DNA of 64,000 nucleotides from an uncultured Chloroflexia bacterium (GTDB lineage Bacteria > Chloroflexota > Anaerolineae > Anaerolineales > UBA4823), in the NCBI GenBank assembly GCA_963792075.1, contig CAWBUW010000007.1, positions 846,429 through 910,428 on the forward strand. Direction: 5' to 3'. The translations under genes and the position numbers were made by a program. Shown piece after piece: positions 6,591 to 37,070 of this stretch (positions are counted from its first letter, which is position 1; each line of letters starts with the position of its first letter). The notes beneath the pieces were generated by a model, which saw only the letters and a program-made list of their open reading frames with translations, was not told where the DNA came from and ran no database searches.

Positions 6591-6716
6591 TCTTTCCTCG
6601 AAACACGTCCTTTGCCGTGCCACCTCCGTTTCCTGTCGCCGGTACACCCAGGCGCAAAGCCATTATACCAAAAAAAGTTCCGAGACTTTGCATTTCTGTT
6701 AGGTTATAATATATAT

Positions 6717-9152
6717 ATGGCAAAAAAGAATAACCCCCTACTCTCACTTGGCTTGGCAGCCGGCGCAGTCGCCGGACTGGCGGGTGCAGCCTACTACTGG
6801 CTGCTGCGACGTTCCCTGGCGCAAAAATCCGGCTCGATTCACCTATCCGGCTTGCACGCCCCGGTGGAAGTGGTCCGCGACCATTGGGGGGTCCCGCATA
6901 TCTATGCGCAGGACCTTACCGACCTGGTCTTCGCCCAGGGCTATGTGCATGCCCAGGACCGCCTGTGGCAGATGGATTTCAACCGTCATCTGGTCTCAGG
7001 GCGCGTTTCTGAGCTTTTCGGCCAGGTCTCCGTCTCCCTCGACCGTTGGATGCGTACGCTACGCATGCGTGCCACAGCGGAACAAGAAGTTTCCCTGCTT
7101 ACGGAGGAAGAACGTGGCATGCTCGAAGCCTATGCCCAAGGCGTCAATGCCCGCATTGCCCGCGGCCCCCTGCCTGTGGAGTACACGCTTTTGGGATACC
7201 ATCCTGAACCGTGGGCCGCTGCCGACAGTCTCTCCTGGACGAAAATGATGGCCTGGACTCTTTGCGTCAATTGGGAAACCGAGATTCTGCGTGCATTGCT
7301 CGTTTCCCGCCTGGGGCCTGAGCAAGCAGCCGAGCTGGAGCCACCCTACGCCCCTGGACTGCCTTATGTAATTCCTCCCGGCGTGGATTATTCTTGCCTT
7401 TCCGCCGAACCGCTCCGCCGCGCCAGCGCAGCTCAAAAATTTACAGGCCCCTCTGCCCGCGATGGCCTGGGCAGCAATAACTGGGCGATCCATGGCAGCC
7501 GTACCACTTCCGGGAAACCCCTTTTCGCCAATGATATGCACCTCGGGCTGACGATTCCCTCCGTTTGGTATGAAAACCACCTGGTCGCGGGAGATCTGCA
7601 GCTCTCTGGCATTTCCTTCCCAGGCATCCCCCTGATCATTTCCGGCCATAACGGGCACGTCGCCTGGGGGTTTACCAACGGCTTCCCAGACGTGCAGGAT
7701 TTGTACATGGAACATCTGCGCACAAACGAAAAGGGGAATGTGCAGTATGAGTTCAAAGGCGAATGGAAAGATGCCCAGGTCGTCCATGAGGCCATCCAGG
7801 TCAAAGGCGCAGATACAGTCTTCGAGGACGTGGTGATCACCCAGCACGGCCCGATTATCAACTCACTCAACCCGGACCTGGCCGGTGAGACTCCGTTGGC
7901 CATGCGCTGGACAGCCCTGGACCCGGCAAATATGATCACCGCGGTTTTGGGTATGGTCACAGCCAAGAATTGCCTGGAGTTCCGCCAGGCGCTGCGTCAC
8001 TGGGGTGTTCCGGTGCAAAACGTCGTCTCAGCAGATGTGGATGGAAACATTGCGTACTCTTATCCAGGTCGCATCCCATTGCGCGCTCCAGGTGAAGGTC
8101 GCCTGCCTGTGCCTGGCTGGTCGGGGGAGTATGAATGGCAAGGGTATATTCCCTTCGAAGAGCTGCCACATATGTACAACCCCGCCCCAGGGTATATCGC
8201 AACCGCCAACAACAGGGTTGTCGATGCGGGCTATCCCTATTTCCTCGGCAATGACTTTGTCGGCCCAGGCCGTATTGCGCGCATCCATGAATTGATCAAC
8301 TCGGTTGATAAAGTAGATATATCCTTTATCCAACGCATGCACTTAGACCAGGTATCGATCCCGGCTCGCACCGTAGCGGTCCACCTGACACAGGTCCAGA
8401 CTGACGATCCTGAGCTACAGATCATCCTGCGCCAACTCCAGGAATGGGATGGCAATCTCGCAGCTAACAGCTCTGCCGCCAGCCTCTATGAAGCGTTCAT
8501 GCAGTGCCTGGCGACTCGCCTGCTCGAACCCCGCTTGGGCGATCTAACCCAGTACTACATGGGCAAAGGGATTACACCAGTTCTCGATGAGACCAGCTTA
8601 CTCGGAGAGCGCTGCCGGGAATGGCTACTGCAGCTCCTCGACCAACCGGACTCGCATTGGTGGGATCTGGGCCAAGGCGAAAACCGTGAACAACAAATTC
8701 TCTTGGCGCTGCGTGCTGCCGTGGATTTACTTAAAAGCAAGCTGGGGCCGGGTTTTAATGATTGGAGCTGGGGAAAATTGCACAGTCTCACCCTGGCACA
8801 CACGCTGGGCGCGCAGAAGCCGCTGAATCTCCTGTTCAATCGCGGTCCCTTCCCCATGGGTGGCAATAGCGATACGATCTGGAACTCCCAAATCTCGCTC
8901 CATGCCCTGGATAAAGGCACCATGATAGGCCCGCCCTTCCGTTTTATTGCGGATTTGGCAGACCTCGGCCACAGCCTGGGCCAGCTTCTGCCCGGCCAAT
9001 CCGGTCAACCCAGCAGCTCGCATTATACAGATAATATCCCGGCCTGGCTCAAAGGTGAATACCATCCGATGCTCTATCATCACCAGGACATTCTCGAACA
9101 TGCCGAAGCAACGCTGCACTTACTGCCTGTGCAAAAAATTAGAGATGATTGA
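6717..9152 (+). CDS. penicillin acylase / acyl-homoserine-lactone acylase family Ntn-hydrolase
   Basis: ORF trimmed to the ATG at 6717 (MAKKNNPLLSLGLAAGAV, a signal/TM segment). The GLGSNNWAI motif has the autoprocessing Ser nucleophile context, and the ~810-aa length is typical of the family. Confidence 0.85.
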   Translation: MAKKNNPLLSLGLAAGAVAGLAGAAYYWLLRRSLAQKSGSIHLSGLHAPVEVVRDHWGVPHIYAQDLTDLVFAQGYVHAQDRLWQMDFNRHLVSGRVSELFGQVSVSLDRWMRTLRMRATAEQEVSLLTEEERGMLEAYAQGVNARIARGPLPVEYTLLGYHPEPWAAADSLSWTKMMAWTLCVNWETEILRALLVSRLGPEQAAELEPPYAPGLPYVIPPGVDYSCLSAEPLRRASAAQKFTGPSARDGLGSNNWAIHGSRTTSGKPLFANDMHLGLTIPSVWYENHLVAGDLQLSGISFPGIPLIISGHNGHVAWGFTNGFPDVQDLYMEHLRTNEKGNVQYEFKGEWKDAQVVHEAIQVKGADTVFEDVVITQHGPIINSLNPDLAGETPLAMRWTALDPANMITAVLGMVTAKNCLEFRQALRHWGVPVQNVVSADVDGNIAYSYPGRIPLRAPGEGRLPVPGWSGEYEWQGYIPFEELPHMYNPAPGYIATANNRVVDAGYPYFLGNDFVGPGRIARIHELINSVDKVDISFIQRMHLDQVSIPARTVAVHLTQVQTDDPELQIILRQLQEWDGNLAANSSAASLYEAFMQCLATRLLEPRLGDLTQYYMGKGITPVLDETSLLGERCREWLLQLLDQPDSHWWDLGQGENREQQILLALRAAVDLLKSKLGPGFNDWSWGKLHSLTLAHTLGAQKPLNLLFNRGPFPMGGNSDTIWNSQISLHALDKGTMIGPPFRFIADLADLGHSLGQLLPGQSGQPSSSHYTDNIPAWLKGEYHPMLYHHQDILEHAEATLHLLPVQKIRDD

Positions 9153-9177
9153 CTCGGATTCAATTTCTTGCTATATT
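9149..9177 (+). promoter_or_regulatory. sigma70-like promoter (TTGACT-17 nt-TATATT)
   Basis: ttgact at 9149-9154, a 17-nt spacer, and tatatt at 9172-9177. The -35 box overlaps the acylase stop codon. No convincing ORF lies downstream. Confidence 0.45.
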
Positions 9178-9183
9178 GTTTAT

Positions 9184-9733
9184 ACAAGTTCTTTAAAAAG
9201 CACTCCGAAAAGGCTAACTCATGCGAAAGCTGAGGGCGCAAAGCAGTGGATCTAAAACCTGCTAACAAATCTGGATCCATTCCAGAGCCTGGTCAGAGGT
9301 AAGTCCAGGCTGGTCGAAACAGGCGAAAAAACGGTTTATTAATTTAACCGCAAGAAGGTTCCGAATACATTTACCAGGCCTGACCCAAACAGGCTACGTA
9401 AAGAATAAGTAAGAACCATCACGTAAACCAAATTTCACCCAAAAACAGGTCAAGACAGCCTTGCTGCCGATAATAGCAAACTTTGTGAAAACAAAGGACG
9501 CAGAGTGATGGATCTACAGCCGGAAAGACAGCGCCGCCAAGACGGAAAGGTCATACGAAGGTCAGGATTGCCACACCAACCGTACAACGCAAAACTGGTG
9601 AAAACCAGTGACGCAAAGTCATGGGTCTAAACCTTAAGTCATAATATAAAAAGGTATGATTGCCAGACTGCCGAAGAGTGCTTTCCTTATCAATAAAAAA
9701 ACCAGGGCGTGCTTCACACGCCCTGGTTTTTTT
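9184..9733 (+). ncRNA. candidate ~550-nt structured non-coding RNA of unknown class
   Basis: The unit is bounded by the promoter above and a strong terminator at 9694-9733. There is no credible ORF. A 9-bp helix closes the 5' and 3' ends (aaagcactc 9197-9205 with gagtgcttt 9676-9684). There are three copies of a GAAA-tetraloop hairpin followed by GACGCAAAG..UGGAUCUAAACC, and three AAACAGG motifs. Confidence 0.4.
9694..9733. terminator. bidirectional intrinsic terminator
   Basis: aaaaaaa-accagggcgtg-cttca-cacgccctggt-ttttttt. The stem is 11 bp, flanked by an A-run and a T-run. Confidence 0.85.
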
Positions 9734-9740
9734 AGCAAGG

Positions 9741-10265
9741 CTAGGCTGCCCGTCCCGCCTTCAGGGAATCTTGTAATTTCTGCAATCCTTCCAGATCCCC
9801 ATTTGCAGCCAGCGCAGCCTGTTGCGGCCAGGTGCCCGGATCTGCGATGCGCGCCAGGCGCTCATCCACCGAGGACAGGAGCGTTTTGATCTCCTCTGGC
9901 TGCATCGCGGCCAATTGAGCGAAGGTGCTCACGCCTTTCTCCTTCAGCACACCCGAAATTCGCGGTCCGATGCCCTCGATCAGGATCAGGTCATCTGGCT
10001 TCACTTCGGCCTGCGGTTCAATTACATCGACGTTTGAAATCGTCGCATGGAGCAAGACTTCCTCAACACGCGCTGGTGCAGCTACAGCGGCCTCCTCATG
10101 GAAAGCATCGGCGTGTTCTTCATGATCACCGTGAACAACGTCATGCTCATCATGGTCGTGGCCAGCCGGGGCGTCTTTAGCGCTTTCTCCCGCGCTGCGC
10201 CGCAGTGCCCACCAAACAACGATGATGATAATAACCAGGGCTACCAAACTCAGAAACACGTCCAT
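9741..10265 (-). CDS. membrane-anchored His/Asp/Glu-rich protein with a C-terminal helix-hairpin-helix-like domain
   Basis: 174-aa ORF with an N-terminal TM helix, an acidic His-rich linker (HDHDEHDVVHGDHEEHADAFHEE), then LILIEGIGPRISGVLKEKGVSTFAQLA, an HhH-type motif. Confidence 0.55.
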   Translation of the reverse strand: MDVFLSLVALVIIIIVVWWALRRSAGESAKDAPAGHDHDEHDVVHGDHEEHADAFHEEAAVAAPARVEEVLLHATISNVDVIEPQAEVKPDDLILIEGIGPRISGVLKEKGVSTFAQLAAMQPEEIKTLLSSVDERLARIADPGTWPQQAALAANGDLEGLQKLQDSLKAGRAA

Positions 10266-24155: not shown

Positions 24156-24226
24156 AAAAACCAGGCTGGGGATGAAGGAGTTGAACCTCCGCATACAGAT
24201 CCAGAGTTTGCTGTCCTACCACTAGA
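24156..24226 (-). tRNA. tRNA-Gln (anticodon CTG)
   Basis: Manual cloverleaf. Acceptor stem TGGGGAT/ATCCCCA with a U1:A72 pair, D-arm GTCT-AGTGGTA-GGAC, and anticodon arm GCAAA-CTCTGGA-TCTGT (one A.C mismatch and one G.U pair). T-arm GGAGG-TTCAACT-CCTTC, discriminator G. CCA is not fully encoded. Confidence 0.8.
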
Positions 24227-24274
24227 CGAATCCCCAATTAGTAAAGTGGGGATTATTTTACCACAATTTGCTTT

Positions 24275-36985: not shown

Positions 36986-37060
36986 TTTTACAATTCGGGG
37001 TGTGGCTCAGCCCGGCTAGAGCGCACGGTTCGGGTCCGTGAGGTCGGAGGTTCAAATCCT
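36986..37060 (+). tRNA. tRNA-Pro (anticodon CGG)
   Basis: Manual cloverleaf. Acceptor stem CGGGGTG/CACCCCG, D-arm GCTC-AGCCCGGCTA-GAGC and anticodon arm CACGG-TTCGGGT-CCGTG. Variable loop AGGTC, T-arm GGAGG-TTCAAAT-CCTCT, discriminator A. Confidence 0.9.
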
Positions 37061-37070
37061 CTCACCCCGA

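Follow-up and report, generated by a model that had tools for sequence, protein, structure and literature searches.

We describe here a predicted non-coding RNA from an uncultured Chloroflexia bacterium (assembly GCA_963792075.1, contig CAWBUW010000007.1), encoded on the plus strand at positions 9185–9733 of the 64,000-nucleotide (nt) stretch of DNA that was analysed, hereafter the window. Judged from its sequence, this is a conserved, structured RNA of about 550 nt with a promoter and a terminator and without a conserved open reading frame (ORF), and the three modules repeated within it are three aptamer cores of the cyclic di-GMP (c-di-GMP) riboswitch class c-di-GMP-I (GEMM-I, RF01051). The aptamer class is known; what is new is the arrangement, in which the cores follow one another with zero linker under a single P1 helix, in a stand-alone RNA with a large insert in one P1b helix and a mixed set of nucleotides at position 20. 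Nine further copies were found in metagenome and run-assembly contigs (nhmmer E-values 1e-21 to 1e-92), eight of them full-length and one partial, and these divide into two subfamilies. As to its function, we infer, with a confidence that stops just short of an even chance, a stand-alone RNA that binds cyclic dinucleotides and acts as a sink or buffer for them, like the proposed merRNA of Bdellovibrio bacteriovorus.

An earlier note on this stretch, made from the sequence without database searches, had described three hairpin modules and could match them to no known family. Rfam identifies them as c-di-GMP-I aptamers, with E-values of 4.2e-13 and 9e-4 in a scan of the window. Aptamers 3 and 2 reach the gathering score of the model (35 bits), and aptamer 1 falls just under it because the model cannot span its 197-nt insert; the spliced core of aptamer 1 fits the template given below with 8–10 of 10 P1b pairs. 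Covariance-model scans will therefore undercount aptamers with large helix inserts. The compact placements of 68–99 nt that Rfam offers for aptamer 1 were rejected as local alignments, the true 3' strand lying 169–197 nt downstream. Among the homologues, the orthologues of aptamer 3 score 68.7–76.2 bits, the homologues of aptamer 2 score 34.3–52.2 bits on c-di-GMP-I, and aptamer 1 of subfamily 2 scores 37.4–52.4 bits as a local match.

One template accommodates all 26 aptamers decomposed, which come from nine copies, and also the copy L089, read by eye. The 5' half of the template consists of CCG, a junction of 4–7 nt, GC, AAA, the first strand of P1a (6 bp), GAAA, the second strand of P1a, GAC, GC, A47 and one variable nucleotide; the 3' half consists of the P1b 5' strand (4 + bulge + 3 + 3), UAAA, a distal part, the P1b 3' strand (3 + 2-nt bulge + 3 + 4), 1–2 nt and CCGA. 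Modules 1 (9218–9259), 2 (9481–9521) and 3 (9595–9633), whose sequences are exactly as first noted, each run from P1a, capped by the GAAA tetraloop, through the GACGCAAAG junction to the P1b 5' strand, in which the UCUAAA receptor segment lies. They are true paralogous repeats, as had been proposed, with stems that covary around a constant GAAA loop and 3' segment. The idea that their 3' tails are single-stranded did not survive, as the tails pair with covarying strands 19 to 197 nt downstream, and these pairings form the tetraloop-receptor helix. The usual GAC junction reads GGC, AGC or CUC in aptamer 1 of subfamily 1 (window 9235–9237); only the C is kept, and this aptamer thus tolerates changes at two otherwise conserved positions.

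Covariation was scored on a core alignment of 23 distinct spliced aptamers, in which the distal part of P1b was replaced by NNNN and one bulged P1a U was removed from the subfamily-1 copies of aptamer 1. In the 18-pair core, 94.0% of the cells are paired, 12 of the 18 pairs have changed on both sides, and the covariation score is 0.449, compared with 0.193 ± 0.017 for shuffled alignments (none of 500 reaches it) and at most 0.167 for slid partners. The two-hairpin P1a/P1b core on a 2-bp GC base is accordingly supported by covariation. The long-range P1b of aptamer 1, represented by 7 distinct sequences, gives a score of 0.243 against 0.103 when shuffled (reached by 1 of 500) and at most 0.048 for slid partners, with 92.9% of the cells paired and compensatory changes at 4 of 10 pairs (AGCA/UGCU, AGCC/GGCU and AGUC/GACU; UGG/CCA, AGG/CCU and AGC/GCU). 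The distal helix of aptamer 2 covaries as well (GCC/GGU, GCU/AGC, GCC/GGC). Five features are invariant in all 23 aligned aptamers, namely the GAAA loop, the junction C (equivalent to C44), A47, the bulged G (AG/UG) and C92; the GNRA tetraloop, C44 and the bulged G of P1b are residues that make tertiary contacts in Vc2 of Vibrio cholerae.

The predicted folding energy of the 551-nt stretch is -174.7 kcal/mol (z = -7.7), which no shuffled sequence among 100 equals. In the raw minimum-free-energy fold, module 1 (GUGGAUCUA) pairs with module 2 (UGGAUCUAC), a pairing that was set aside since the homologues support the modules' own downstream partners. The near-palindromic GGAUCU segments at 9246–9254 and 9509–9517 pair with each other in that fold of the window; this cross-module pairing is unsupported by the homologues, but for this species it could be an alternative state or a misfolding trap.

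The three aptamers are joined head to tail, such that the xCCGA tail of one aptamer, which provides its C92 and the 3' strand of its P1, consists of the same bases as the CCG 5' flank of the next. The layout is common to all copies: promoter, GCACUC, three cores, GAGUGC and terminator. A terminal helix, in which the 5' flank of aptamer 1 pairs with the 3' tail of aptamer 3, surrounds all three P1a–P1b cores. It contains the 9-bp end helix that the earlier note had drawn, in which AAAGCACUC (9197–9205) is perfectly complementary to GAGUGCUUU (9676–9684), and it recurs in all nine full-length copies. The segment GCACUCCGA is invariant in 9/9 full-length copies and CCGAAGAGUGC in 10/10 copies, and both strands of the helix are strictly kept while the neighbouring leader and tail diverge. 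Its geometry is that of a canonical GEMM-I P1, with a CG/CG step, an AA bulge and a helix, and a single aptamer in the contig L070 has the same P1 layout. The minimum-free-energy folds of all eight transcripts folded contain the terminal helix, with pair probabilities of 0.82–1.00. The remaining large element is the insert at the distal end of the aptamer-1 P1b, which measures 184 nt in the window between the distal CCUG and CAGG strands and 169–197 nt in every full-length copy tabulated (from the UAAA after the P1b 5' strand to the 3' GAN strand).

Of the two guanines of c-di-GMP, one is read by G20 in Vc2 and the other pairs with C92 (PMC6140456), and a G20A change leads to cyclic GMP-AMP (cGAMP) or dual specificity (PMC6140456, PMC9481103). 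Position 20 differs among the three aptamers of one RNA and between the subfamilies (Table 1). Aptamer 2 departs further from the class, reading GCAGAG or GCAGCG in place of the usual GCAAAG (window 9502–9505 and all homologues), that is, A48 has become G and A49 sometimes C. It is partly matched by the Rfam model of the GGC variant, at 32.9–40.2 bits, below that model's gathering score of 59; in L060, where the score is 40.2 bits, this is the best match of aptamer 2. With A20 and GCAGAG or GCAGCG, aptamer 2 may be a distinct specificity variant, and we infer that the three sites differ in affinity or specificity.

The outlines of the transcription unit held up well, all the listed features being found where the earlier note had placed them or at most 1 nt away. 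Its promoter, TTGACT-17-TATATT, was confirmed at 9149–9177, with 10 of 12 consensus matches and a TG extension, and transcription is predicted to start near 9184–9186. In both subfamilies, among the copies whose upstream sequence was read, TTGAC[T/A], about 17 nt and then TATAxT or GATAAT stand at a fixed distance from GCACUC, and in subfamily 2 this promoter is so placed that transcription would start only a few nt from the P1 strand. The strong terminator is likewise present, as an 18-bp hairpin (9694–9711 with 9717–9734) followed by U7, and it is predicted to be bidirectional because of an A7 run upstream of the stem. Alone, the terminator tail of the window folds at -33.2 kcal/mol, within the range of -21 to -33 kcal/mol across copies. 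The -35 hexamer overlaps the stop codon TGA of the upstream acylase gene (9150–9152), and in L060 the -35 comes about 40 nt after that stop codon. Since no terminator separates the acylase gene from the RNA, read-through from the acylase gene could also yield the RNA in this genome.

The unit is AT-rich as had been described, with a GC content of 0.43–0.45 over 9100–9699 compared with 0.53–0.61 in the flanks, and over the same interval the A-over-T skew of the plus strand is +0.36 to +0.38. It also has no credible ORF; the longest on the sense strand encodes 41 amino acids (aa) and none is common to both subfamilies. A small ORF was considered and rejected, as frame and extent vary among the copies. 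Three occurrences of the heptamer AAACAGG were confirmed, at 9317, 9387 and 9443 (0–1 nt from the positions first given). As a conserved motif it failed, since the triple is kept in no homologue and the third occurrence is the CAGG strand of the aptamer-1 helix.

The five other copies of subfamily 1, to which the window belongs (L059, L060, L061, L078 and L084), were found through relatives of the HHH/DUF4332 protein encoded by the convergent neighbour gene (51–61% identity), and have nhmmer E-values of 8e-49 to 2e-92. This gene is syntenic with the RNA in all five, and the acylase gene in L059, L060 and L078, where an intergenic gap of about 620 nt and the convergent acylase are seen. A metagenome scan with a degenerate aptamer-2 pattern yielded the divergent copies L063, L067 and L075 of subfamily 2 (nhmmer E about 1e-21 to 1e-23), and a search with the upstream membrane protein of that subfamily added just L089. 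Thirteen further hits of the pattern were discarded: eight are chance matches, and five are ordinary GEMM-I riboswitches, single or doublet, that precede genes. Conservation is much higher in the RNA than in its neighbours, with about 37 nt of aptamer 2 identical where the HHH proteins share 51–61%.

The genomic setting differs between the subfamilies. In the window, the minus-strand genes after the HHH gene are a raffinose-synthase-like gene and then GH31, and beyond the RNA the plus strand is free of genes for more than 5 kb. In subfamily 2 the RNA needs a promoter of its own because its upstream neighbour is divergent, and a methylmalonyl-CoA mutase gene starts 95–260 nt past the terminator in all four loci. 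At about 565–690 in L075, and similarly in L089, the interval from the RNA terminator to the mutase start codon holds three direct repeats of about 38 nt, each with the GC-rich hairpin GGGCGGGTyCAGrACCCGCC, resembling repetitive extragenic palindromic (REP) elements. The nearest relatives of the acylase in species-representative genomes are in metagenome-assembled genomes of Chloroflexota, Anaerolineaceae and Thermoflexales, at no more than 59% identity. At the 57 genome loci with acylase relatives (32–59% identity), nhmmer detected no copy of the RNA, and Rfam showed no GEMM-I aptamer in the 10 of them that were scanned. In L086–L088, which encode GlmS proteins 81% identical, the synteny glmS–acylase–HHH(DUF4332) is kept, the slot of the RNA in L086 (1587–2468) is occupied by a gene for a 293-aa protein with a Usp domain (PF00582), and nhmmer finds no trace of the RNA. 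Among 15 large ORFs of the window, Pfam revealed no c-di-GMP genes, only housekeeping, carbohydrate-metabolism and similar functions, and the surrounding 64 kb carry no mobile-element signature.

Table 1. Positions in the window of the triple-aptamer RNA, its parts and its neighbours.
Feature	Position	Strand	Details
Promoter, sigma-70-type	9149–9177	+	-35 TTGACT 9149–9154, 17-nt spacer, extended -10 TGcTATATT, hexamer 9172–9177
Terminal helix (P1), 5' strand	9197–9207	+	core GCACUC 9200–9205, AAA extension 9197–9199, CG step 9206–9207 (S0)
Aptamer 1	9206–9470	+	junction AAAAG, position 20 = G9212; pairs G9213–C9239, C9214–G9238
Aptamer 1, P1a	9218–9234	+	GAAA loop 9225–9228; A47-equivalent A9240
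Aptamer 1, P1b	5' strand 9242–9261, 3' strand 9446–9465	+	tail G-C9467(C92)-CG-A
Aptamer 1, branched insert	9262–9445	+	distal end of P1b; hairpins e.g. 9271–9285, 9286–9311, 9332–9350, 9354–9420
Aptamer 1, Rfam match	9202–9269	+	33.4 bits, just under gathering score 35
Aptamer 2, GEMM-I variant	9467–9583	+	shared CCG 9467–9469; junction AUAAUA, position 20 = A9475
Aptamer 2, P1a	9481–9496	+	GCAGAG junction, A47-equivalent A9502, A48 changed to G
Aptamer 2, P1b	5' strand 9505–9521, 3' strand 9560–9576	+	tail CAA-C9580(C92)-CG-U
Aptamer 2, distal insert	9522–9559	+	38 nt; aptamer 2 of subfamily 1 has this smaller distal insert
Aptamer 2, Rfam match	9465–9541	+	37.6 bits
Aptamer 3, canonical GEMM-I	9580–9675	+	shared CCG 9580–9582; junction UACAAC, position 20 = C9588
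Aptamer 3, helices	P1a 9594–9609, P1b 9617–9669	+	A47-equivalent A9615; tail G-C9671(C92)-CG-AA
Aptamer 3, Rfam match	9578–9675	+	75.8 bits, E = 4.2e-13, full model positions 1–87
Terminal helix (P1), 3' strand	9676–9684	+	GAGUGCUUU, core GAGUGC
Intrinsic terminator	9694–9734	+	GC-rich stem 9702–9711 with 9717–9726, then U7 9727–9733
Position 20, subfamily 1	9212, 9475, 9588		aptamer 1 G (9212), aptamer 2 A (9475), aptamer 3 C (9588)
Position 20, subfamily 2			aptamer 1 A, aptamer 2 A, aptamer 3 G
Acylase, penicillin-amidase family	6612–9152	+	upstream neighbour; Pfam PF01804, E = 1.4e-231
174-aa protein, HHH_5/DUF4332-type domain	9741–10265	-	convergent neighbour, ends 8 nt past terminator

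A free-standing sink or buffer is preferred here to a gene switch. No structure that competes with the terminator was found in any copy, and the 5' arm that would be freed has no consistent partner in P1 or aptamer 3; with no competitor for the terminator, no expression platform is seen. An antiterminator pairing of AAGCAC in the 5' strand of the window with GUGCUU of the terminator was tried and dropped, as it is not conserved in L059, L060 or subfamily 2. The same-strand gene and competing platform that together define a cis-acting riboswitch in the strict sense are not found in subfamily 1, while subfamily 2, with its co-directional mutase gene, is ambiguous. The features that mark a stand-alone RNA of the merRNA type, namely its own promoter, a terminator and no conserved downstream ORF, are all present as predicted from the sequence, and the downstream gene is not conserved between the subfamilies, being the convergent HHH gene in one and the methylmalonyl-CoA mutase gene in the other.

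Under this hypothesis, a strong and apparently constitutive promoter would drive the RNA and the transcript would end at the uncontested terminator, and we propose that as a result the RNA accumulates in free form. Each molecule could then take up as many as three cyclic dinucleotides (c-di-GMP and, where position 20 is A, possibly 3'3'-cGAMP), with binding at the three sites probably interdependent because the junction strands are shared. The RNA would sequester or buffer the second messenger with high affinity, and its degradation would release the ligand.

Several observations are admittedly difficult to reconcile with this hypothesis, or weaken it. The ends, abundance and stability of the transcript are predictions. 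Each RNA has only one aptamer with the canonical G at position 20, which leaves ligands and affinities uncertain. Being invariant, the terminal helix is backed by conservation, thermodynamics and its P1 geometry, not by covariation. The large insert, conserved in size, has no role in a pure sponge model. In the four subfamily-2 loci a co-directional gene follows the terminator, and cis regulation is possible there. Finally, the Usp gene that replaces the RNA in L086–L088 implies that the RNA is dispensable in some relatives.

An extension of the same idea is that the RNA represents a new riboswitch-class architecture, in which three GEMM-I cores meet in one hub with partly domain-swapped pockets and the molecule acts as an obligatorily cooperative, free sensor or buffer; we regard this as possible, although we lean against it. 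The four CCG steps S0–S3 (9206–7, 9468–9, 9581–2 and 9672–3) cannot all form canonical P1 tops together. The alternative registers of the hub are S0:S3, running into the terminal helix, with S1:S2, or S0:S1 with S2:S3, and nearest-neighbour energies do not discriminate between them, all models lying within 5 kcal/mol. The geometry suggests that in either register the three pockets converge on one hub and that binding is interdependent. The strongly favoured S0:S3 pairing would bring the aptamer-1 strand with position 20 to face the aptamer-3 strand with C92, and S1:S2 would do likewise for aptamers 3 and 1. If so, the G, A and C at position 20 could integrate c-di-GMP and 3'3'-cGAMP or widen the range of concentrations sensed.

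The best of the rival explanations is a cis-acting riboswitch, in which three cooperative aptamers serve one platform and the ligand closes the terminal P1 and thereby sets read-through of the terminator. Its targets would be the HHH, raffinose-synthase-like and GH31 genes in subfamily 1, by antisense transcription, and expression of the mutase in subfamily 2. In every copy the terminator lies only 10–25 nt past the last aptamer, as is usual in riboswitches, and a co-directional gene follows in all four subfamily-2 loci. Antisense-acting c-di-GMP-I riboswitches have moreover been proposed from genome surveys (PMC9943018), and multiple aptamers on one platform are known, for example in the glycine riboswitch (PMC9481103). 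However, neither P1 nor aptamer 3 overlaps or pairs alternatively with the terminator in the homologues, and the terminator wins by 15–28 kcal/mol; blocking its 3' arm costs 27.9 kcal/mol in the window and 14.8–26.3 kcal/mol in the homologues. The window terminator is very strong (10 GC-rich bp and U7) as well as bidirectional, and the 5' strand of P1 precedes its partner by 450–480 nt, an awkward distance for a co-transcriptional decision. The supposed targets vary in identity and orientation across the subfamilies, and at three of the four loci of subfamily 2 the mutase gene has a promoter-like TGTTGTATAAT ahead of it, past the terminator. On balance we consider a cis-acting switch rather unlikely.

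A ligand-gated RNA acting in trans would give the insert a purpose. Here, binding would rigidify the hub and alter the presentation of the 170–190-nt extension of the aptamer-1 P1b, which would be the effector that engages a protein or another RNA. The insert is predicted to be a multi-stem domain, with multi-stem consensus folds in both subfamilies, and, as it plays no part in ligand binding, it must be kept by some other selection. Small RNAs that sequester regulators under the control of a riboswitch, such as EutX/Rli55, are an established concept and speak for this alternative. Yet the inserts of the two subfamilies do not align convincingly, covariation within them is only weak because 5 and 3 sequences are available for the two subfamilies, and no gene for a partner protein is linked to the RNA in both. 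We therefore view a trans-acting effector as unlikely.

The two remaining explanations are very improbable. The earlier note had suggested that single-stranded module tails might sponge up a protein or a small RNA. Repeated 25-nt segments do exist and are highly conserved, but they consist of the GACGCAAAG junction and the P1b 5' strand, 92–94% of whose cells are paired with a covarying 3' strand, so that they cannot serve as single-stranded bait, and the ligand and tertiary contacts (A47, C44, tetraloop receptor) explain their conservation. If the RNA is a sponge, its target is most likely a cyclic dinucleotide. Equally hard to credit is a decaying relic of a tandem array that has lost its downstream gene and its function, for although subfamily 1 has no downstream gene, a syntenic relative lacks the RNA and aptamers 1 and 2 are near or below the Rfam gathering threshold, the conservation of the RNA exceeds that of the flanking proteins in two subfamilies, every helix is maintained by compensatory changes, and the promoter, terminal helix and ligand-contact residues, except the variable position 20, are intact in 10 copies.

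Compared with the c-di-GMP-I aptamers of RF01051, such as Vc2, each core of the RNA has the same GC base, P1a with GAAA, GACGCAAAG junction, P1b receptor and bulged G, with A47 and C92 invariant, and the P1 has the same CG/CG step, AA bulge and helix. It differs in that three cores have one P1 and common junction strands, with no coupled expression platform and, in subfamily 1, no downstream mRNA; the P1b of aptamer 1 carries an insert of about 185 nt, and position 20 is not always G. Tandem arrangements of c-di-GMP-I are not new as such, since 347 doublets and 12 triplets have been catalogued and classed as independent switches under 'multiple expression platforms' (PMC9481103), and some of our loci may already be counted among the 12 triplets, without analysis. 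In the Bc3-5 system of Bacillus thuringiensis, a 'pseudo-cooperative' tandem and the only triplet studied, three complete riboswitches, each with its own terminator, lie in the 5' untranslated region of an operon (PMC4759541). Bc3-5 resembles the RNA described here in having three GEMM-I aptamers in a row on one transcript. The latter has, in contrast, zero linker, one enclosing P1, one 3' terminator and no consistent downstream gene, and its aptamers share the CCG step in place of a platform or terminator after each. A similar contrast is provided by a doublet at 8479–8696 of L070 (identical in L071 and L072), located upstream of an ORF, in which an aptamer of the c-di-GMP-I-GGC variant (63.5 bits) and a c-di-GMP-I aptamer with A20 (59.9 bits) flank a linker of about 57 nt that has a terminator-like hairpin of its own.

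The closest parallel in terms of function is merRNA, a stand-alone RNA of 445 nt with a c-di-GMP riboswitch and no conserved downstream ORF, which has been proposed to store or soak up c-di-GMP (PMC3627812). Compared by description only, both are stand-alone non-coding RNAs of several hundred nt that contain a c-di-GMP riboswitch. They differ in that merRNA has one riboswitch and is confined to Bdellovibrio, whereas here three fused aptamers with a terminal helix are found in Chloroflexota.

The A that replaces G20 in aptamer 2 of all copies, and in aptamer 1 of subfamily 2, is shared with the GEMM-Ib (3'3'-cGAMP) riboswitches of Geobacter, in which position 20 is the nucleotide that reads the first ligand base (PMC6140456, PMC9481103). 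Many A20 aptamers bind both ligands, however, and specificity can thus not be read from position 20 alone; aptamer 2 furthermore differs from GEMM-Ib in its additional conserved change to GCAGAG or GCAGCG. The tandem glycine riboswitch offers a precedent for aptamers of the same class coupled in one folding unit and makes cooperativity plausible (PMC9481103), although it belongs to a different class, has two aptamers with separate P1 helices and controls a downstream gene. In the literature searched, no mention was found of GEMM-I riboswitches together with Chloroflexota.

To our knowledge, nearly all descriptions of riboswitch aptamers concern cis-acting mRNA leaders, and the idea that such an RNA may be a sink for free ligand rests essentially on merRNA, a single unvalidated case. 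A second, independent family from a different phylum, with three predicted high-affinity sites and no consistent target gene, provides a test system for this idea. The design is also a natural model for cooperativity among ligand sites in RNA, and possibly for the sensing of two cyclic dinucleotides by one molecule. At about 170 kDa, the RNA is of sufficient size for cryo-electron microscopy.

Other structured RNAs were recorded in passing. The contig L065, which also has a single GEMM-I riboswitch, contains a match to 6S RNA at 1–142 (52.5 bits) with its 5' end cut off. In the window, tRNA genes were identified at 24166–24236 on the minus strand and 36996–37070 on the plus strand, with Rfam scores of 54.1 and 60.8 bits.

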